From the NCBI GenBank assembly GCA_963708075.1, contig OY970194.1, positions 2,752,001-2,816,000 on the forward strand: DNA of 64,000 bases, read 5' to 3'. The position numbers were made by a program, and so were the translations under genes. Below the pieces are notes generated by a model that saw only the letters and a program-made list of their open reading frames with translations, did not search any database and was not told the origin of the DNA. Positions 8,865-42,698 of this stretch are shown piece after piece (position 1 is the first letter of the stretch; every line of letters starts with the position of its first letter). Source of the stretch: Sedimentisphaerales bacterium. Lineage in GTDB: Bacteria; Planctomycetota; Phycisphaerae; Sedimentisphaerales; Anaerobacaceae.

Positions 8865-8988
8865 GATTTACCATTTATCATTTACGATTTATGATTTACG
8901 AATTACGATTTGTCTCCGGACGCGCTATCTGTTCTACCGTGCGTCATCGCCAATCATAAATTGTAAATCGTAAATCGTAAATCGCAAA
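8865..8988. repeat. Heptamer inverted-repeat element A: (GATTTAY)n, core, (RTAAATC)n
   Basis: About 6.5 units at 8865-8911 and about 5 inverted units at 8952-8987; fills the whole divergent intergenic gap. Confidence 0.9.
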
Positions 8989-9768
8989 ATGCCCGACACA
9001 CGAGAACATAGAGGTCCGCATCCCGCCGATGCGGAGTTGTTTGCGCCGCCGATGCATACCCGCCTGCGGGCGGCCGTGGCTGATTTCTCCATGCTGCTGA
9101 CAAAGGGCTACGCGGAAAAAAGTGCGCTGGCGCTGGTCGGCGACCGATTCTCGCTGACGCAGCGGCAGCGATTGGCCGTGATGCGAAGCGCCTGCTCCGA
9201 TCAGCAACTGCAGTCGCGTCTCGAACGCCGCATGCCCGTCGAGGCGCTGGCCGATCAGCCCATCGCCATCGACGGCTATAACCTGCTGATCACCATCGAA
9301 GCGGCCATGAGCGGCGGCCTAATCTTCAAAGGCCGCGACGGCTGCTTCCGCGACCTGGCCAGCATCCATGGTACCTACCGCAAAGTCGAAGAAACAGTCC
9401 CCGCCGTGCAACTCATCGGCGCCTTCCTGACCGAAATCCGCATTGCCCGGGCCCTCTGGCTTCTGGACAGTCCCGTCTCCAACAGCGGCCGCCTCAAGAC
9501 CCTGATCGCGCAACTCGCCCGTGAGAACAACTGGCCCTGGGAGATCCGCCTGACAATCAGTCCCGACGCGGAATTGAGTTCCCCGTTGACAGTTCCCAGT
9601 TCTCAGTTCCCAGCCAACTGTCAACTGACGACTGACAACCGGCAACTGACCGCAATCGTCGTCAGCACCGACAGCGTCATCCTCGACGCCTGCCAGAAAT
9701 GGGCCAACCTCGCCGCCGAGATCATCACCCGACGATTGCCGCCGACGACCATCATCGACCTCACTTGA
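8989..9768 (+). CDS. DUF434 domain-containing (PIN-like) protein with in-frame repeat insertion
   Basis: HRGPHP.D..LF, IDGYNLLITIE, DGCFRDLAS.HGTYRKV, LDSPVSNSGRL, STDSVILD. Confidence 0.85.
   Translation: MPDTREHRGPHPADAELFAPPMHTRLRAAVADFSMLLTKGYAEKSALALVGDRFSLTQRQRLAVMRSACSDQQLQSRLERRMPVEALADQPIAIDGYNLLITIEAAMSGGLIFKGRDGCFRDLASIHGTYRKVEETVPAVQLIGAFLTEIRIARALWLLDSPVSNSGRLKTLIAQLARENNWPWEIRLTISPDAELSSPLTVPSSQFPANCQLTTDNRQLTAIVVSTDSVILDACQKWANLAAEIITRRLPPTTIIDLT
9576..9650. repeat. Heptamer inverted-repeat element (CAGTTCY / CAACTGA) inside the DUF434 ORF
   Basis: CAGTTCC CAGTTCT CAGTTCC followed by CAACTGT CAACTGA CGACTGA CAACCGG CAACTGA. Confidence 0.8.
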
Positions 9769-25955: not shown

Positions 25956-26098
25956 TTGCGGACAGAGATCAGATGGCAGCCAGACACAACCTGCCGACTG
26001 GGCGACCGTGAGGCCATTCCAGCCTCCACTCCCCGGTCGTCTCGCACGTGCAGCCTATCATGCCCCCTGCCGGTCAAAAGCAGGAACGGGCCGAACGA

Positions 26099-26950
26099 TC
26101 AATAGTCCTTGTACTTTCGCAGCCACTGGGGCCAGTAATCGGGCTGAGCTCCACCGAGTCTGGTCCAGGCGCCCGATGTATCGTATTCGCGATGCCACCG
26201 CAGGGTCCACAATTCCTTAAGGCCGACGTGCCGGACCGACCAATCCGCAAAGGCAAGATTCGTCCAGCCGTTGTGCCGGTCGATACAGAACTGGTTCATC
26301 TCGCCGGCGGTCCCCTTGTCCCCCCAGCCGGAGTCCCACGGTGTCTGCATCGGCTCATCGGTGTGCTGAGGCCAAGCATCGTGCCAGGTGTTATCCCCGA
26401 GGACCGGGACCTGGTTGGGAGTCTTGAGGTTCTGTGCGGACTTCCAGAACCACTTAACGCTGCGGTTGCCGTTAGTGCGGTCCTGGAGTTGGTAGTCGAT
26501 CCAATTGTTGGTGCCGTAGCTGCCGGTCCAGTTTATTTCGGGGCCCTCGCTCGAAGCCGGGTAACGATTGCCCATCGGGTCCGTGCGCCACGCCTTGAAT
26601 GTACCGAAATCCGCAAGGCTCAAGACAACGCGGGTGGCCGTGGGACAGAACCGCATCTCGTCATCGACGTAATAGGGCCGCAGGGCATTCATCCACAAAC
26701 CATACGTGGCTGGCCGGCCCGCATTTTGCGGGTGCTGGTTGTAGCCCTGGCCTTCGGGGAAGTATCCGCTGTTATCATCGGTGTACAACTTGTATTGCAT
26801 CCCCCAGCTCCTGAGCCTGGACATGCAGGCGACGGACTGGGCCTGCTTCTTAACGCGGGACAGGGCGGGCATGAGGATCGACATCAGGAGTGCGATAATG
26901 GCGATGACCACCAGGAGTTCGATGAGGGTAAAACCCTTGCGTCGGATCAT
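26099..26950 (-). CDS. Prepilin-type N-terminal cleavage/methylation protein (planctomycete H-X9-DG class)
   Basis: GFTLIELLVVIAIIALLMSILMPAL; RHNGWTNLAFADWSV. Confidence 0.9.
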   Translation of the reverse strand: MIRRKGFTLIELLVVIAIIALLMSILMPALSRVKKQAQSVACMSRLRSWGMQYKLYTDDNSGYFPEGQGYNQHPQNAGRPATYGLWMNALRPYYVDDEMRFCPTATRVVLSLADFGTFKAWRTDPMGNRYPASSEGPEINWTGSYGTNNWIDYQLQDRTNGNRSVKWFWKSAQNLKTPNQVPVLGDNTWHDAWPQHTDEPMQTPWDSGWGDKGTAGEMNQFCIDRHNGWTNLAFADWSVRHVGLKELWTLRWHREYDTSGAWTRLGGAQPDYWPQWLRKYKDY

Positions 26951-27055
26951 GGATCATTCCCTTTCCGGTGCTGCAGTTGTCGGCTGATACGATATAGGCG
27001 TCGGTATGACTTACTATATCACATGGCCGGCAGGCATGCAAGGTCCCGCCTGGCG

Positions 27056-27595
27056 TCATTTCTTGCGTTCCTGGAGCATGCGGGTCTGGAGACGGATGAG
27101 GGTCTGGGGCGTGACCGTGCGCGCGGATAGATCGCCGAGAATCACGCCGTACTTGCCATCCGGCGTCGGCCAGTACATCAGGATGGCATACTGATCGTTG
27201 AGATCCGCACGGTCGCCGCAAAAGACCACGTCCCGGCCCTGGGCGGCCAGCTCATCCCGGAATTTCGCCAACCCCGGCAGGACGTCCGCCCGATAGGCTT
27301 TTTCGCCGCCGAGAGCGTACTTCAGGAACAGCTTGCCATCCTGGTACATGTGCACGCCATCGGCGTCCCGTCCGCCGAAGAAGGCTCCGATCAGAAAGAC
27401 GGCCGCCAGGATCGCGGCGGCGGCCGCTATACGGCTGACACGCAGGTCGACGATGATGTTGATCGTGTCCATGCGGTGCGCGTAAAGCCGATGAGGTATC
27501 CGGCTCTTGATCTCCTGGGCCAGACCGGGCCTTGCCTGCTCGATCAACCGCCCGGGCAGAACCTTCAGCATTTCTTCAAGTTCTCTCTTTTCCAT
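27056..27595 (-). CDS. Putative anti-sigma factor (single TM)
   Basis: Directly downstream of an ECF sigma gene; RIAAAAAILAAVFLIG TM segment. Confidence 0.65.
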   Translation of the reverse strand: MEKRELEEMLKVLPGRLIEQARPGLAQEIKSRIPHRLYAHRMDTINIIVDLRVSRIAAAAAILAAVFLIGAFFGGRDADGVHMYQDGKLFLKYALGGEKAYRADVLPGLAKFRDELAAQGRDVVFCGDRADLNDQYAILMYWPTPDGKYGVILGDLSARTVTPQTLIRLQTRMLQERKK

Positions 27596-27621
27596 AGTGG
27601 CCTTACCCGAATAGGAGAACC

Positions 27622-28248
27622 CTACAGATCGCCCATCTGTTTTCTCAGGGCTTCCAGCCCCCTGTTGAGACGGCTTTTCAGCGTCCCCTGCCGCACACCG
27701 GCAGCGTCTGCCGCCTCCGAGATCGTCAACTGCTCCATGTAGTGCAATACGATAGCCTGCCGCAGCTTGCGGGGCAGCCGGGCCACCGCGCTGCGCAGCC
27801 GCACCGATTCCTCATGCCCGCTGGCCCCATCCAGCCCATTGGGGCCGCCCAAAGGCATTTCCAGCCCCTCGGGACTGCTGGTATCCACGTCCTTGTGCCT
27901 TCGCCAGTACAGGCGCGAGACATTTCCAGCGATGCGAAAGAGCCAACCGTTCAATGCCTTGCCGTCCCGCAACTGGCCGATGTGATACCAAGCCCGCAAG
28001 AACGTCTCCTGCGTCAGGTCTTCACTGATCTGCCGGTCATGCCCGACGGCCCGCATGAACAGGTAAATCCGCTCGTAGTAACAATCTACGAGCTCTTCCG
28101 CCGCTGCATGATCGCCCCGTCTGAGCCTTCCGGCAAGCAATTCAAAGTCCATCCGGGGCGTTCCTCCTGTCAGTTCGACAGCGGCCGTTTCTCGGATAAG
28201 ATGCGCGGTTCCTGCGTTCTGTTCTGCTGCCTGGGCGTTTTTTTGCAT
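27622..28248 (-). CDS. ECF-type RNA polymerase sigma factor
   Basis: SEDLTQETFLRAW, GWLFRIA.N, GTLKSRLNRG; start is either 28248 or 28152. Confidence 0.9.
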   Translation of the reverse strand: MQKNAQAAEQNAGTAHLIRETAAVELTGGTPRMDFELLAGRLRRGDHAAAEELVDCYYERIYLFMRAVGHDRQISEDLTQETFLRAWYHIGQLRDGKALNGWLFRIAGNVSRLYWRRHKDVDTSSPEGLEMPLGGPNGLDGASGHEESVRLRSAVARLPRKLRQAIVLHYMEQLTISEAADAAGVRQGTLKSRLNRGLEALRKQMGDL

Positions 28249-28272
28249 GTTCTCCACCCTGCTATGCCCTTT

Positions 28273-28301
28273 AGTATACCCGAATCGGGCCTCCGACTCA
28301 A
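28273..28301 (-). promoter_or_regulatory. sigma70-like promoter for the ECF gene
   Basis: Minus strand TTGAGT-17 bp-TATACT. Confidence 0.6.
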
Positions 28302-28350
28302 CAGAGAACACACCCAAGGCGTCAGCAAGAAGGCCGAGGCCCCTCGCCCA

Positions 28351-29083
28351 AATTGGCTTTGTTTCGCACAACGCACCGGCAGTTGCCTCCCGCCTACGGT
28401 CTCCAGTCTCTGGACTGCCCTCCCAATTGGCTTTGTTTCGCACGACAGCCCTTCCGGAATTTGGCTTTGTTTCGCAGACTCGGCCTCTATTCCGCATTCC
28501 GCATTCCGCATTCAGTATTCCGCACTCCCAAGGCCCCCGGCCTGGAATTGGCTCTGTTTCGCAGAATCGCTCCTGTCTTCTTCATTCCGCATTCCGCATT
28601 CCGCACTCCGCACTCCCAGGCCCCCGACCTGGAATTGGCTTTGTTTCGCAAAATCGCCAGCCAATCATAACCCTTTTCCCACAAAGAACTTAGCGATACA
28701 CACCCGCCAAATTGGCTTTGTTTCGCAGAGTCGCTCCCGTTGTAGGGGCGGGTTTCAAACCCGCCCGTACCGCCGTAAGGCGTTCGTGGCGAGGGCGTCC
28801 CGCCCTTGTCTTCCGCCCCCAATTGGCTTTGTTTCGCAGACTCATTCACCTGCCACGCACCTTCACTCCGCATTCCGCACTCCCAGGGCCTCGACCCCAG
28901 ATTGGCTTTGTTTTGCACACCCGCCTGTGTAATCCCCTGCGGCCTACCGCCTCCAGCCTGCCCGCTGCGAATTGGCTTTGTTTCGCAGACTCGTTCATCC
29001 GCTCCCGGCCTTTCAATCCGCATTCCGCAATCCGCATTCCGCAATCCCAGGGGCCCCCGGCCCATAATTGGCTTTGTTTCACA
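28351..29083. repeat. Array of ten 18-bp direct repeats (consensus AATTGGCTTTGTTTCGCA) with 16-93 bp spacers
   Basis: Copies start at 28351, 28425, 28459, 28546, 28633, 28710, 28821, 28900, 28970, 29066, each with 0-2 mismatches. Confidence 0.95.
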
Positions 29084-29339
29084 CAACCTGGCACTCGCCG
29101 ACGGTGATGCCCGCTTGACCGGTCACGGCAAGACCCTGGGACTCTTGATTTGCGATTTGCGATCTTTGACTTTTGATATTTGACTTGTCTATCCGACCAT
29201 ATACTAAAGACGCTCATCGAGCCGGATTGTTGCAGGAATGTCTGGTAAATAGTGAACCTACTTCCAACCTCTTGTGGCCCGGTGACTTACAGTGCTCTGT
29301 CTTTGTGCATCGAACCGGGAAAACTCGCCCGCCTTCTTC

Positions 29340-29570
29340 ATGCCTCGAATAATGAATAATGAAGACACGGCCCCCGGCCCCCTTAGTACCGTAGGACGGA
29401 AGCTCATTCAGGTGCGGGCGTCCCTGCGGAATTGCCCTCAGGATGCGGAGCTTCGGCGCGAGGCTGAGACGTTGGAGATGATGTACAAGGAGTTGCTGGA
29501 AGAGGCTGGCCAAGTCGGAACTCCTCGACCTGTCGGACGAATCTCTGCATGTCGCGTCGGCTGGCCTTGA
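29340..29570 (+). CDS. Small hypothetical helical protein, convergent with and overlapping paralog 1
   Basis: RKLIQVRASLRNCPQDAELRREAETLEMMYKELLEEAG has protein-like composition; no family recognised. Confidence 0.35.
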   Translation: MPRIMNNEDTAPGPLSTVGRKLIQVRASLRNCPQDAELRREAETLEMMYKELLEEAGQVGTPRPVGRISACRVGWP

Positions 29571-30093
29571 ACGTGTCGCCTACCATCGTCGTGGCATAGG
29601 CTCGGCCTATCCTCGGTTCTTCCGGGATGAGGGGCGGTTGGGCCCGAAGGAGGACCGGGTTGAACCAGATCATCGCGCTGTGTTGTGGACCGACCTCTCG
29701 CTGCCACTCCAAGCCCTTGCGGACAGGTTCCTGTTGACAGAGGGTGACTGAGTGAAATTCTCTTCGTTGCAGAGACCAGACAGCCTTGCTTTCCCGTATG
29801 CGTTTGGGAGCAAACTTGGTGATTGCAGTGATCACTCGCCATCTCCATCCCGGCAGGAATCCGACGGTCGCTCCGACTACAGGCACATGCCCAACGTTGC
29901 AGACTTCTATGATGCCGCGCCATGTCGTGACGTGTTTCCCATCCTTCACTTCACCCATACAATGGAGACTGGGTCGAACGACGAGGTGCGGGCGGCTCTT
30001 GTCCCGCTGGTGAAGGTAGTTGAGGATGCCCAGCGCGAGGCCGGACAAGCCCGACACCGCACCGATTATCGCAGTGACTTCCGTAAGGATCAT
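29404..30093 (-). CDS. Unknown N-anchored membrane protein, tandem paralog 1 (A type; internal insertion and extended C-terminus)
   Basis: GAVSGLSGLALGILNYLHQRD, EVCNVGHVPV, PQHSA, GRAY, VGDTFKASRRDM. Confidence 0.75.
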   Translation of the reverse strand: MILTEVTAIIGAVSGLSGLALGILNYLHQRDKSRPHLVVRPSLHCMGEVKDGKHVTTWRGIIEVCNVGHVPVVGATVGFLPGWRWRVITAITKFAPKRIRESKAVWSLQRREFHSVTLCQQEPVRKGLEWQREVGPQHSAMIWFNPVLLRAQPPLIPEEPRIGRAYATTMVGDTFKASRRDMQRFVRQVEEFRLGQPLPATPCTSSPTSQPRAEAPHPEGNSAGTPAPE

Positions 30094-30105
30094 AAGCAGT
30101 ACTTC

Positions 30106-30134
30106 ATGATAAATGCGATCACCGTCTTCTGCAA
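30106..30134 (-). promoter_or_regulatory. Promoter of paralog 1
   Basis: TTGCAG-17-TATCAT-12-ATG. Confidence 0.75.
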
Positions 30135-30147
30135 GGCCAGAGACGGG

Positions 30148-30642
30148 CTAAGTCGAGGCTGCTTTGCGCATCTTGGCGAATACCCGCGTGTCGCGTCGGC
30201 TGGCCTTGAACTTGTCGCCCACAATACTCTGGACGCAAGCGCGGCCCAGTCGGCGACCTTCTGGCAACTCCTCCGGGCTAAAGTCAAATCGCCCAGTGGC
30301 GGCATGCTGGGGCTTGAGTTCTTCATCCCACCACTTGACGCCGTTGAACGGCGTGAGTATGAACTGAGGCACATTCTTCTCTTGCCTGCGCTTGCGTAGG
30401 AACTCAATGGTCCCACGCACCGTTACCGGCACTTGCCCCACGTTGCAGATACTTACGATAGCGACATTCTTCTCTTGCTGCGGTATATGGGAGCCCCGAA
30501 GGCAAGATATGTCATACAGCCGAACCACAAGACGCGGGCGGCTGGTGTCCCGCTGATGCACGTAGTTGAGGATGCCCAGCACGAGACCGGACACGCCTGA
30601 CACCACGCCGACCATGATCCCGATGGCTTGGAGAGTACTCAT
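30148..30642 (-). CDS. Tandem paralog 2 (B type)
   Basis: MSTLQAIGI.VGVVSGVSG, ICNVGQVPV, ELKPQHAA, VGDKFKASRRD, ends AAST. Confidence 0.8.
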   Translation of the reverse strand: MSTLQAIGIMVGVVSGVSGLVLGILNYVHQRDTSRPRLVVRLYDISCLRGSHIPQQEKNVAIVSICNVGQVPVTVRGTIEFLRKRRQEKNVPQFILTPFNGVKWWDEELKPQHAATGRFDFSPEELPEGRRLGRACVQSIVGDKFKASRRDTRVFAKMRKAAST

Positions 30643-30654
30643 ACGCAGTATCGT

Positions 30655-30683
30655 ATGATAAACAGACTGAATGTCTTCTGCAA
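30655..30683 (-). promoter_or_regulatory. Promoter of paralog 2
   Basis: TTGCAG-17-TATCAT-12-ATG. Confidence 0.75.
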
Positions 30684-30708
30684 GGCCAACCGGTTCAGAT
30701 ATTCGGTG

Positions 30709-31221
30709 TCAGCGTCTTTCTCTGGAAGACGCTGCCTTGCGGGACTTGGCGAACCTTCGCATTTCGCGTCGGCTGGCCTTGAAGTCCTCGCCAACGGCAC
30801 TCGTGACGTAAGCTCGGCCCAGTTTGCGGCCTTCCGGTAGCTCGTCCGGACCAAAATTGAACAGTAGCATGGCCCTCTGTTGTGGCTTGAGTTCCCCAGG
30901 TAAGAGGATCTCGTTGGACATGGCCTCACAGAGCGGTTCCGGTGTGAATATGAGAGAATGTGCCTTCTGCCCGCGCTTAGGGAGGAACTTGATGACCGCA
31001 CCCATCATCACGGGCACCTGCCCTACGTTGCAGATATCTACGTGCACAACGGTCTTCTTTTGCGGGTTGTTGGGAGCAACAACCCCGGACATGTCGAATA
31101 GCCGAACCACGATGCGTGGACGGGTGGTGTCTCGTTGGTGCAGGTAATTAAGGATACCCAGTACAAGGCCGGATACACCTGACACCGCACCGACTATCGC
31201 AGTGACTTCAGTAATGCTCAT
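30709..31221 (-). CDS. Tandem paralog 3 (A type)
   Basis: MSITEVTAIVGAVSG, ICNVGQVPV, GELKPQQRA, VGEDFKASRREMR. Confidence 0.8.
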   Translation of the reverse strand: MSITEVTAIVGAVSGVSGLVLGILNYLHQRDTTRPRIVVRLFDMSGVVAPNNPQKKTVVHVDICNVGQVPVMMGAVIKFLPKRGQKAHSLIFTPEPLCEAMSNEILLPGELKPQQRAMLLFNFGPDELPEGRKLGRAYVTSAVGEDFKASRREMRRFAKSRKAASSRERR

Positions 31222-31233
31222 AAGCAGTGTTTC

Positions 31234-31262
31234 ATCATAAATGCGATTATCCTGTCCTGCAA
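31234..31262 (-). promoter_or_regulatory. Promoter of paralog 3
   Basis: TTGCAG-17-TATGAT-12-ATG. Confidence 0.75.
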
Positions 31263-31275
31263 AGCCAGAGGCGGG

Positions 31276-31769
31276 CTAAGTCGAGGCTGCCTCCAACTGC
31301 TTGGCCACCCAGCGCATTTCGCGTCGGCTGACCTTGAATCTATCGCCGATGGCACTCTCGACGTAAACTCGGCGCACCTTGCGTCCTTCCAGGAGGTCGG
31401 CCAACCTAAAGTCAAATTCCAGCATCGCGGCGTGCTGCGGCTTGAGTTCCCCCGGCCATGCGGTGACGTCATTGTACGGCTTGGGTGATATCGTCATCGG
31501 GGATGTCTGGCCGGCCTTAGTAGGAAGGAACCCGATACCCTCGACCATCATCACTGGCACCTGCCCCACGTTGCAGACCTCCACGAGGCCGGGGTACCTC
31601 TCGTCCTTCGTGCTCTTGGAGGCAAAACAACTGGGCATGATGTAAAACCGAACCATGATGCGCGGCGCGTGCTGACCCGCCGCTCCCAGTAGTTCACGAT
31701 GCCCAGCACGACGCCGGACACACCCGACACCACGCCGACGATAATCCCGATGGCTTGGAGAGTACTCAT
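31276..31769 (-). CDS. Tandem paralog 4 (B type); 1-bp deletion near 31664
   Basis: MSTLQAIGIIVGVVSG... joins MVRF...VCNVGQVPV...FKVSRREMR...AAST if one base is added, restoring RPRIMVR. Confidence 0.75.
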
Positions 31770-31781
31770 ACGCGGTGTTGT

Positions 31782-31810
31782 ATGATAATCTCGCTCGCTT
31801 CTTCGTGCAA
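31782..31810 (-). promoter_or_regulatory. Promoter of paralog 4
   Basis: TTGCAC-17-TATCAT-12-ATG. Confidence 0.75.
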
Positions 31811-31876
31811 GGCCGAAAGGAACGGACTTGGGGTCAACTCGTGACACTTGACAGACGGGGTCGCATTCGAGGAGGA

Positions 31877-32551
31877 GCGCCGGCAAGATGCCGGCGCGAC
31901 GCAAGGCCGGGACGGCCTCGCCACGAAAACGCCTTACGGCGTCACTACAAACAGGAATATTAGGGCCAGCCACCGAGTTCTGCCTTCTCTTATGTCGTTT
32001 ATGCCTCGGCCTTCGCGCCTTCATCAGACATCTTGGCCTCACCACACCGATCCGACCCACGGCGGGCCGGGGCTGTCATTCTTCACACGTTCGTCAGGAG
32101 TGCCTCTGGAGACTATCATGACAGACGCGGGCGAAGCCGGCAAGGGAAAAGAGACCTTGGGATTTATGATTCACGATTTATGATTGAATCTCTCCTGATA
32201 CGCATCTGCATTTCCCCGGCAGTTCTCCGCGTCTTGGCGTCTCTGCGCGAGAAGTCTTCAGTCGTTAGTCGAATGAGGACCTGGATTCCCGCCTTCGCGG
32301 GAACGACATAGGAAGTGATCTCTGCGGCCCTGCGTCTCTGCGTGAGATTGTCTTTTCGCGTGGTTCGCGGTTGAAGAGGAATGAAACGCATGGGTTGAGA
32401 ACCCACCCTACAGTCTACGAAATCAGCGTTCATCGGCGTTTATCTGCGGTTGCATCTTTCCTTGCGTCTCGGCGTCTCTGTGTGAGATGATCTGGATTCC
32501 TGCTTCTGCAGGAATGACATGGGCGGAATCGGTGTGCGAGGCACACCCTAC
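31877..32551. repeat. Non-coding mosaic of several short palindromic and tandem repeat families
   Basis: Hairpins 31877-31941; heptamer run 32161-32186; three GCGTCTCTG(C/T)G(C/T)GAGA units (about 32224, 32320, 32461); two CTGGATTCC..GGAA.GAC; two GTAG-type REPs (about 32389, 32531); ATCTGCG-type unit 32421-32451. Confidence 0.85.
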
Positions 32552-33291
32552 GCGACGCCCATGATCTGCTTGAGGGTTTGGGCGTTGTTCAGGGCGTGGC
32601 CGCTGATGTCGTTGTTGAAGTAGGCGTAGATGGCTTGGACGTTGGGGGCCTGGGCCTTGAGCCAGTTGGCCCAGTCATGGAGCATGTGGTCGGGGTAGTT
32701 GCCCGCGTAGCGGCCGTTGGTGCCGTGGAAACGGACGTAGGCCATGCGGCCGGTGACGAGCCGGGGCGGGGCCTTGTCGCCCATATCGTGAACACATAGC
32801 GCGACGCCCCGCCGGTGCATGAGGTCGAACGTCTCCTGGTCGTACCAGCTATTGTGACGGAACTCGAAGACGGCGTTGTCCCGCCTCGGCAGGGACTCGA
32901 TGAATTCGTCCAGCCGTGCCAGATTCTTGTGCAGATTGGGCGGCAGTTGGTACAGGATGGGCCCGAGCCGGTCCTTGAGCAGGTTCGCCAGGGCGAAGAA
33001 TCGGCCGACCTCCTCGCCCGTGTTGTGCAGTTTTTTGATGTGCGTGATGTAGCGGCTGGCCTTGACCGCGAAGAGGAAGTTCAGCGGCACCTTGTCGTGC
33101 CAGTTCACCATCGTCTGCTCTCGCGGCATGTGGTAGAAAGTGTTGTTGATCTCCACCGTGTCGAAGTGCTGGGCATAGAATCCCAGCCAGTCTTCCTTAC
33201 GCATCTTCTCCGGATAGAACCGGCCGATCCAATGGTTGTAGTGCCAGCCGGAGGTCCCGATCCGAATCTCACTGGATTTACGATTTACCAT
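32548..33291 (-). CDS. DUF72 (UPF0759/YecE) family protein
   Basis: IGTSGW.Y..W, FDTVEINNTFY, KASRYITH, QLPP, FEFRH.SW, YVRFHG, AYFNND. Confidence 0.93.
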   Translation of the reverse strand: MVNRKSSEIRIGTSGWHYNHWIGRFYPEKMRKEDWLGFYAQHFDTVEINNTFYHMPREQTMVNWHDKVPLNFLFAVKASRYITHIKKLHNTGEEVGRFFALANLLKDRLGPILYQLPPNLHKNLARLDEFIESLPRRDNAVFEFRHNSWYDQETFDLMHRRGVALCVHDMGDKAPPRLVTGRMAYVRFHGTNGRYAGNYPDHMLHDWANWLKAQAPNVQAIYAYFNNDISGHALNNAQTLKQIMGVA

Positions 33292-33389
33292 TTACGATTT
33301 ATGATTTACGATTCGTTATACCGACGCGCCGGCCGCTCTGTTGTGCGCCGGCGCCAATCATAAATCGTAATTCTTAAATCGTAAATCGC
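33275..33389. repeat. Heptamer inverted-repeat element B (GATTTAY family)
   Basis: Arms at 33275-33313 and 33356-33389; core shares GACGCGC..GTGCGYC with element A. Confidence 0.9.
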
Positions 33390-33391
33390 CA

Positions 33392-33625
33392 ATGGTTTTT
33401 GGGCCTCAGCAATTCGGCAAATGGCTCGTGGTGATCGGGGCCGCGATCGTCGTGATCGGCGTGCTTGTGATCCTGCTCGGAAAGATCGGGCTGTTCCGTC
33501 TGCCCGGCGATTTCACGTTTGGCGGCCGTAACTGGCGCATTTACTTCCCTTTGGCAAGCAGCATCATCCTTTCCCTTCTCCTGACATTGATCCTCTGGCT
33601 GATCCACTATTTCACCCGGCGCTGA
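33392..33625 (+). CDS. DUF2905 family small membrane protein
   Basis: LFRLPGDF......IYFPLASSIILSLLLTLI. Confidence 0.9.
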   Translation: MVFGPQQFGKWLVVIGAAIVVIGVLVILLGKIGLFRLPGDFTFGGRNWRIYFPLASSIILSLLLTLILWLIHYFTRR

Positions 33626-34124
33626 ACGGCCGTGACAAAAGGTGCATGGGCTGTCAGTGAAAACCACAGGGGGAAATAGGTATTCTCCTTATGGCAGCCG
33701 CCTGACAATCCGGCTTTGATGGTGCAGGCCAGAAGAATCGAAATCCGGAAAGCCGGGATGCCCATGATCACAAGCATGATGCTCTGGAACGAGCCGAACA
33801 ACACGTTGCGTATCTGCCCGCAACTGAAGGATCCCGGACCGATCGTGCAGATGAAGGACGTCAACGCGAGAGAGGAGATCGAGCGGTTTCTCAATTCATT
33901 GCGACCCGTGGCGAAAATGAAGATTGATGAGCAGTCGGCGTCCGGGCCGTTGGTCTCTCCCGCCGGACACCCGTCCCCAAAGGCAACGACAACCCAGGTG
34001 TCGGGCAGCAGATTCAATGAACGGGCCGCAGGGGCGACTGGTCCACGGATACTCTATTCAAGACGGCCAAGGCCGGGCAATTCGAGACGATCTGCGAATC
34101 CATGATGTTGCACGTGGGACAGAC

Positions 34125-42606: not shown

Positions 42607-42698
42607 CATTTACTATTTACAATTTATGATTTGCGATTTACCATTTGGTCCATGACTGGTGCATCCAATCGTAAATCGTAAATGGTAAATCATAAATC
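42607..42698. repeat. Heptamer inverted-repeat element C (GATTTAY family)
   Basis: Arms at about 42607-42646 and 42667-42698. Confidence 0.88.

Follow-up and report, generated by a model that had tools for sequence, protein, structure and literature searches.

A ten-repeat array beside an ECF sigma operon in a Sedimentisphaerales bacterium, almost certainly the gene-less end of a dispersed cassette

The window, which is the whole stretch of 64,000 nucleotides that we analysed, contains an array of ten co-oriented 18-bp repeats next to an ECF sigma factor gene (Table 1). The repeats start at positions 28351, 28425, 28459, 28546, 28633, 28710, 28821, 28900, 28970 and 29066. The start-to-start distances of 74, 34, 87, 87, 77, 111, 79, 70 and 96 bp give the spacer lengths that the first-pass annotation had listed (56, 16, 69, 69, 59, 93, 61, 52 and 78 bp). 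Compared with the first repeat, six of the ten are identical, three carry one mismatch and one carries two, and a single 14-mer occurs seven times in the array region against a maximum of two in 1000 base shuffles. The repeats are far more conserved than the spacers, as described before; the element itself lies on the minus strand, opposite to the strand of the earlier description. The genome that carries the array (G000) is 7.5 Mb in size and 92.8% complete, and we refer to the array as A18.

The spacers hold the short motifs previously reported from them, namely heptamer runs in spacers 3, 4, 7 and 9, GCCTAC..CTCCAG motifs in spacers 1 and 8, and a GTAG hairpin followed by a second small hairpin in spacer 6. 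Elsewhere in the window, other heptamer families form intergenic runs (8865-8988, 9577-9613, 33275-33313 and 42667-42698). As to a possible assembly artefact, contigs of sequencing run X1, which may itself be the source sample of the assembly, match 28107-28388 and 28412-28673 with 0 differences, and none spans the whole array. Joints seen in these contig matches derive from repeats of other organisms and were left out.

Table 1. Positions of the array, its leader and the adjoining host features in the window
Feature	Position	Strand	Remark
Direct 18-bp repeat array, n = 10, TGCGAAACAAAGCCAATT on element strand, modular spacers	28351..29083	-	array A18 of 42 in G000
Heptamer run, spacer 3	28489..28528	.	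motif-run listing
Heptamer run, spacer 4	28583..28616	.	motif-run listing
25-bp TAA-N19-TTA site in spacer 5	28668..28692	.	partly IHF-like
GTAG REP-type hairpin in spacer 6	28742..28770	.	passenger
Second small hairpin, spacer 6	28771..28782	.	same spacer half again in A31 and A42
Short heptamer run, spacer 7	28865..28884	.	read directly
Heptamer run, spacer 9	29014..29047	.	motif-run listing
15-codon frame (MTGQAGIT...)	29079..29126	-	at start position of family gene; ends in first repeat
A-rich heptamer run of leader	29137..29187	-	as ahead of start codon in intact gene copies
Predicted ECF-type promoter motif, TGCAAC-N16-CGTC	29209..29234	-	directed into array
Second 25-bp twin site	29265..29289	.	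in leader, near left boundary of cassette
Sigma-70-type promoter of neighbouring sigma gene	28273..28301	-	
Neighbouring ECF sigma factor gene	27622..28248	-	host gene, outside cassette

The sequence to the right of A18 is a leader of the type found with the intact genes described below, made up of a twin site, an ECF-type promoter motif, the A-rich heptamer run and a 15-codon frame. We take the TGCAAC-N16-CGTC string to resemble the ECF-type promoter consensus. The short frame is homologous, in place and in sequence, to the start remnants of arrays A13, A4, A7 and A25, as judged by eye and from its position after the common leader. Directly adjoining the outer edge of this leader are four or five paralogous ORFs in tandem, 126-229 aa long (29404-32060, minus strand), which start like MSTLQAIGIMVGVVSGVSGLVLG and have an N-terminal hydrophobic helix; none of the four that were scanned has a Pfam match over the cut-off.

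On its other side A18 stands 50 bp upstream of the promoter of the ECF sigma operon, and that promoter is kept in most relatives of the same genus, whether the array is present or absent. The neighbours of A18 are a sigma factor and small ORFs without known family. The leader's ECF-type motif points through A18 into the ECF sigma gene and a probable anti-sigma gene (27056-28301), and no strong terminator is predicted on that strand within A18. Read-through from the leader promoter, and with it autoregulation of the sigma operon, is possible.

A genome-wide search for the 18-mer, proposed in the first-pass annotation, returned 288 copies in G000 with up to three mismatches, in 56 clusters of which 42 have two or more copies, and more in relatives. 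All 42 arrays are one-directional. Ten of them occupy the 3' ends of a single gene present in nine copies, of which one is interrupted, and the remaining 32, A18 among them, have no gene. Many gene-less arrays nevertheless retain the promoter leader and several retain the gene's first codons; besides A18, seven gene-less leaders have a ribosome site and first codons resembling those of the family gene. Promoter motifs are found on the element strand in 31 of the 42 arrays (17 ECF-type, 12 sigma-70-type and 2 sigma-54-type) and on the other strand in 2, with patterns that were drawn up after the leaders were seen and leaders that have common descent. Among 11 gene-less leaders the promoter boxes are conserved in 10-11, and most positions of the spacer between them in 5-9.

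The full cassette is a twin site, a promoter, a gene for an all-helical protein of about 180 residues and one or more motifs of 12-18 bp. Since gene-bearing and gene-less copies have the same leader and the same motif, the arrays descend from the gene, and we regard it as nearly certain that A18 is the 3' end of such a cassette without its gene. Some copies have other elements nearby. IS-like ORFs, recognised by eye, interrupt the gene copy at A29/A30 (G000 4778140-4780455) and are also present within or next to the A22 and A26 leaders (near 3465765 and 3805906). Two Y1 (REP-type) transposase genes adjoin A4 (478768-481957); the genome has 13 Y1 transposase matches, 11 of them without positional link to arrays.

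What fills the spacers is mostly common property of the arrays. Of the 212 G000 spacers with a length of 25-130 bp, 162 have an alignment to a spacer from a different array that scores above every shuffled control, and seven of the eight testable spacers of A18 have whole-length counterparts in other arrays when G000 alone is searched. Away from arrays, A18 spacers match only where heptamer or REP motifs are embedded in them, over 23-38 bp. Most copies of these motifs lie outside arrays, including 45 of the 52 exact matches of the REP hairpin motif of spacer 6. The spacers are therefore better described as exchanged modules with passengers than as captured fragments, and the earlier proposal that the array captures or templates dispersed repeats finds no support in that form. 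Nor do those of the suggested partner families that were checked accompany the arrays: the four tyrosine recombinases and one reverse transcriptase of G000 all lie away from them.

The spacers of gene-less arrays have no frame constraint. The commonest distance between repeats in G000 is 87 bp (28 of 244), and arrays A6 (941600-942040) and A14 (2339761-2340340) contain four to five near-identical 87-bp units in frame with the gene, the product of recent tandem amplification. With 17 arrays oriented on the leading and 25 on the lagging strand (n=42), there is no bias with respect to the replichore.

The association of motif and gene extends far beyond this genome. We compared the best 80 of 572 confirmed GTDB loci, which come from Planctomycetota, Acidobacteriota, Proteobacteria and other groups. 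Of these, 68 have the motif downstream of the gene, against 1 upstream per strand, when one mismatch is allowed and the pattern covers the G variant and inverted copies; the exact pattern gives 59 downstream and 0 upstream. Across phyla the motif has been retained next to the gene, including at loci with only one or two copies. An inverted copy occurs in 13 of the 80 loci and is the sole copy type in 3. Within 61 genomes of the order, 10 of the 11 with ten or more exact motifs carry the gene and 45 of the 46 without the gene have at most four exact motifs, counts that include kin and are not independent. The genus has the gene in 23 of its 24 genomes, with exact motif counts from 0 to 976; genomes with low counts have a variant that differs by one base, and among the matches listed it often comes as an inverted copy ahead of a direct one. 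Gene-less copies are numerous elsewhere too. The gene lies inside 2 of 20 motif regions fetched from genome G071 and 0 of 14 from G058, and whole-genome totals are 2 gene matches and 50 exact motifs for the former and 8 and 196 for the latter. By motif search and clustering, no gene family recurs beside the family gene in more than 3 of the 80 chromosomal loci; clustering of neighbours yields common synteny in two to three loci and one REP-type transposase cluster in three.

The protein belongs to a large family, with a conserved core of about 180 residues and 24,997 clusters at 50% identity (E<=0.001). Three family proteins have no match over the cut-off in Pfam, NCBIfam or PHROGs, 116 members have none in NCBIfam below E 0.03, and a PDB sequence search gave none below E 0.37. 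The closest named records come from Phycisphaerae and Sedimentisphaerales. An AlphaFold2 model (pLDDT 86) is all helix, with two N-terminal helices followed by long helices. Foldseek found no match for it in PDB and viral sets at E<=0.001, a VIA search reached a best Z of 8.1 to generic coiled coils, and the ESM Atlas returned only nameless clusters, with no match for residues 1-50. Neither a known fold nor a catalytic motif emerged from these sequence and fold searches, and the predicted homodimer scored 0.01. Synonymous and non-synonymous codon changes among gene copies are about equal in number, which implies purifying selection. Intact gene copies of G000, one of which lies at 2846081-2846875, read on through the array, and one and the same ORF has the motif in more than one reading frame; the gene of G071 ends some 120-130 bp ahead of the first repeat.

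A possible clue to the function of the protein comes from phages. Over 44 columns the family N-terminus aligns with phage proteins at a probability of 98.9, the rest being without alignment. In 9 of 17 viral loci, which include two near-identical pairs, the relative directly precedes two conserved genes, identified as the terminase large subunit in two and portal in three of the three loci tested. The viral relatives have weak small-terminase matches (E 0.004-0.03, under the cut-off). Small terminases (TerS) recognise DNA via an N-terminal module and combine a helix-turn-helix at the N-terminus with an oligomerising helical hairpin, according to the accessible part of PMC9611059. Phages at loci L110-L120 carry a Cys-rich probable small terminase with the shared module ahead of TerL and a portal-minor head fusion. 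The chromosomal genes are not placed before TerL and portal (80 loci), viral loci with the shared module have no repeat arrays, and TerS is absent from the ranked fold matches of the family model; the phage relative's own model is poor (pLDDT 56) and its fold searches are uninformative. INPHARED phage records gave 0 matches to the family protein, and a plasmid search gave 7 matches, all partial, among them an HGGxSTG-domain protein (E 0.009). By analogy, the terminase module may be taken as a lead for DNA binding by the family protein, not as a sign of family membership.

The repeats and the twin site stand in a recurrent geometry. The ancestral unit is a repeat, 23 bp, the TAA-N19-TTA site and a second repeat at 89-92 bp, often with further copies at 10-11 bp after it. 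Site-bearing units of G000 are 81 or 89-92 bp long and place the site 22-24 bp from the repeat core, and the A18 repeats that flank the site in spacer 5, 77 bp apart, are a shortened form of these. By pattern, 15 of the 244 units of G000 hold the site, two of them probably by chance. Among 156 non-redundant units of 89-93 bp, less than 75% identical to one another, the site lies at offset 34-36 in 136, where 500 shuffles averaged 4.5 and never exceeded 12, and the linkers of these units are 32% identical. Outside G000, 205 of the 261 spacings within 76-106 bp are 89-92 bp, a peak within a range that the metagenome scan had fixed, and 10 or 11 bp separates consecutive copies in 161 of 564 cases. 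Tandem motif copies at this distance could arise by slippage. Phasing on the far side is not strict, given the 77-bp unit of A18 and units of 96-100 bp in G058. Distances of 101-103 bp, considered as a second phased class, run from first to third copy and were discarded.

The twin site itself has no covariation in its interior and is thus not an RNA stem. In G000 the TAAGT-N15-ACTTA site class is enriched at exactly this spacing (44 occurrences versus 5-17 for nine other spacings), and of 159 looser sites of this type 31 lie within 1.2 kb of arrays; the class is probably the lineage's IHF-type site. The majority letters of the right half are CAA-N4-TTA, the IHF consensus being WATCAANNNNTTR in the accessible part of PMC5224486, and 30 of the 156 sites fit the E. 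coli consensus with at most one mismatch and 67 with at most two. G000 encodes three HU/IHF proteins, two of which score best on IHF models, below the cut-offs of those models; the IHF-like proteins are encoded at 6359225 and 2098592. Twin sites near 4 of 16 sigma-54 motifs were set aside, as two of the 16 belong to arrays. In eight array-less relatives (L089, L092, L094-L098 and L100) a twin-like 25-bp site, seen by eye, overlaps the -35 box of the ECF promoter; it sits behind the conserved upstream gene, where arrays of other genomes end.

The cassette has spread recently to unrelated loci. Four gene copies at unrelated loci are 92-94% identical, and these four and two more have both ends in common. 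No terminal inverted repeats or target duplications were seen by eye at 6 related gene copies or at 17 copies in G071, and no empty site was found in close relatives. All 17 G071 leaders inspected start at one 9-base motif. Leaders of the G015/G004/G010/G014 type (L282-L295, L300, L301) start directly after units of a 10-base dispersed repeat. Some gene copies have a short C-rich core at each of their two ends, which we treat as no more than a lead. A Rep-like transposon has ends that do not resemble the repeat motif. At the ECF locus, 4 of 19 orthologous loci with upstream sequence have an array before the same promoter (G000, G005, G007 and G013). These arrays differ among genomes in leader and spacers, with complete spacer turnover, and that of G005 is preceded, at a contig end, by a 24-residue stretch similar to the last helix encoded by the gene (i-E 0.026). 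A single clade for the four array-bearing genomes is rejected in the one gene tree computed, that of the sigma gene (p-AU 0.0012), which implies repeated insertion, or one gain with losses.

We consider it somewhat probable that the motif works at the level of DNA. Our preferred explanation, to which we give a probability of roughly 0.5, is that the motif is a DNA site for the cassette protein, looped over an IHF-bent site, that serves spread or autoregulation, with gene-less copies served in trans. The motif would be bound as double-stranded DNA, most likely by the basic N-terminal module of the protein that the cassette itself encodes. Bending at the twin site by a member of the IHF family would bring the repeats on either side together in a loop, and the complex so formed may help to copy the cassette or to regulate its promoter. 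Gene-less copies would rely on protein supplied in trans, much as non-autonomous elements do. In the lineage of A18 the repeat-spacer unit may have been amplified and swapped among arrays by recombination at the repeats, while heptamer runs and REP hairpins presumably built up in the spacers over time. Of the two alternatives in the first-pass annotation, the arm-site platform is thus the better backed, by the fixed geometry and the inverted copies; no linked tyrosine recombinase lies beside the arrays or at the 80 loci.

Beyond this, it is tempting to speculate that the cassette represents a class of mobile element without a described member, comprising a small helical protein, the product of its only gene, with a terminase-type DNA-recognition module, a cosB-like repeat-IHF-repeat end and many gene-less satellites. 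We hold this to be rather doubtful. Such an element would spread through Planctomycetota, Acidobacteriota and other phyla via a recruited host or phage enzyme, or by unrecognised chemistry, and its long arrays would be multi-site sinks or shuffling platforms evolved from the element end.

The other alternative of the first-pass annotation was a processed structured RNA. A folding z-score of -1.15 gives this no support, though the promoter points into the array, and Rfam has 0 matches in the window at 26000-34000 (E<=1). Another possibility is that gene-less copies are many-sited regulatory RNA genes, whose single-stranded A-rich repeats titrate an RNA-binding protein, perhaps the family protein. 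The excess of promoter motifs on the element strand and the uniform direction of all 42 arrays would be expected of such genes, and promoter boxes are kept better than the spacer between them, for which a DNA-only model has no need. The same folding score speaks against it, as do the loci where all motif copies are inverted and the spacer turnover at the ECF locus. A fixed 23-bp offset to a non-covarying site and a 10-11-bp tandem spacing suit DNA. A nucleoprotein platform on DNA is accordingly favoured over a sponge RNA on unit geometry and inverted copies, the conserved promoters keeping alive an RNA reading that we judge unlikely.

We think it more improbable still that the arrays are a neutral mosaic similar to NIME or BIME arrays, that is, decayed gene tails that collect repeats, have no present function and owe the uniformity of the 18-mer to gene conversion or an unrelated recombinase. 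Much of the spacer evidence would fit, since modules are common to arrays, A6 and A14 hold tandem duplicates, embedded motifs are frequent outside arrays and copy number is erratic; the NIME architecture, in the accessible part of PMC1797815, is similar. Such a mosaic does not explain why the motif is retained beside the gene across phyla even in one or two copies, why unit length is constrained at such low linker identity, or the purifying selection implied by codon changes among gene copies.

A packaging hijack, in which a derivative of small terminase and a cosB/pac-like unit cause the large terminase of a helper phage to package these loci, is improbable. It draws on the N-terminal module in common with the probable TerS and on known site arrangements, in that the TerS sites R3 and R2 of lambda cosB flank an IHF site (PMC4856287) and the pac site of P22 lies within the terS gene (PMC9611059), both as described in the accessible parts of these papers. 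The remainder of the family protein cannot be aligned with these TerS, however, phage loci lack arrays and INPHARED lacks a match, and packaging alone does not account for insertion at new loci. We strongly disfavour a CRISPR-like or integron-like capture array with spacers acquired from other repeats: repeats far better conserved than spacers and a promoter leader on one side recall one, but no cas1 was found in G000, there is no adjacent integrase, spacers range from 16 to 93 bp, and whole spacers match other arrays and not unique sources. Hardly any weight is left for repeats that encode a conserved peptide (AKQSQ or ETKP) in variable protein tails, as might be read from the intact G000 genes that run through the array and from the 22 of 39 gene-linked spacings that are multiples of 3, because the motif occurs in different frames within one ORF, gene-less spacings fall 79/67/56 by frame and the G071 gene ends before its first repeat.

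Through the motif that travels with it across phyla, a very large protein family without a name in the libraries searched gains a first testable role, and the geometry of that motif points to a direct experiment with one protein, one 12-18-bp site and one bending site. If mobile, the cassette would be an element that works without a transposase or with a new enzyme, bringing ECF-, sigma-70- or sigma-54-type promoters, and up to about 1000 sites per genome, to positions beside host genes. It accounts for a class of short ORFs that are spurious and for unusual protein tails (AKQSQ, ETKP, QNKPN, ELASFG) across these genomes, and its value would shrink to such annotation if the arrays are only a neutral mosaic.

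The literature searched (few subscription papers, no supplements) contains no description of the cassette family, and in the same body of work no papers were found on the strings HGGxSTG and STGPRT or on two 14-base motif strings. Among known systems, CRISPR differs on the three points compared, in agreement with the first-pass annotation, which had set it aside. Its spacers are near-constant in length and those of A18 are not; cas1 was not found in G000, the neighbours of A18 are a sigma factor and small unknown ORFs, and Rfam has no match; and seven of the eight A18 spacers have counterparts in G000 arrays where CRISPR spacers are unique and derived from outside. Protein-titrating RNAs such as CsrB, CrcZ and CcsR are likewise promoter-driven, one-directional series of short motifs, but the cassette has no Rfam match, no conserved structure, inverted copies and a DNA-like geometry. 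Unlike the polar replication-linked sites Ter, KOPS and Chi, the arrays have no replichore orientation bias. REP/BIME elements with RAYT resemble the GTAG hairpins in some spacers, whereas the array's own repeat forms no hairpin. In lambda attP, the left end of Mu and Tn7-like ends, short direct repeats one helical turn apart lie beside a site for a bending protein. The direct repeats one turn apart beside a bending-type site recall these integrase arm-type sites and multi-site transposon ends, yet there is no linked core site, recombinase or transposase at the arrays and the 80 loci.

Closer parallels are found elsewhere. As in lambda cosB (R3-I1-R2-R1, in the accessible part of PMC4856287), repeated sites surround an IHF-like site and the protein has a small-terminase link, but cosN and packaging genes are lacking and there are tens of copies per chromosome; the family's shared module need not correspond to the winged helix of lambda TerS. 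Like MITEs, gene-less copies outnumber gene-bearing ones (32 to 10 in G000, with the gene in 2 of 20 G071 regions), and promoters, an IHF-like site and ORF fusions occur in both, as far as the accessible part of PMC2229807 describes them. Unlike at MITEs, no terminal inverted repeats or target duplication were seen at the cassette, and its parent gene, which may still encode an enzyme, matches no transposase in the sequence and fold searches. The NIME arrays of Neisseria combine dRS3 repeats with RS elements of many 50-150-bp spacer families, with recombination at the repeat proposed (PMC1797815, accessible part). These too are intergenic arrays of short repeats with shared spacer families, the content of which differs between syntenic positions. 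In the same source, dRS3 is an inverted repeat, whereas the 18-mer of A18 is direct and non-palindromic, and the arrays described here differ further in having a promoter leader, descent from a gene tail and a fixed internal site. Fitting the defining features of none of the families tested, the cassette resembles a NIME array in appearance and a mobile family of parent and satellites in the way it works.
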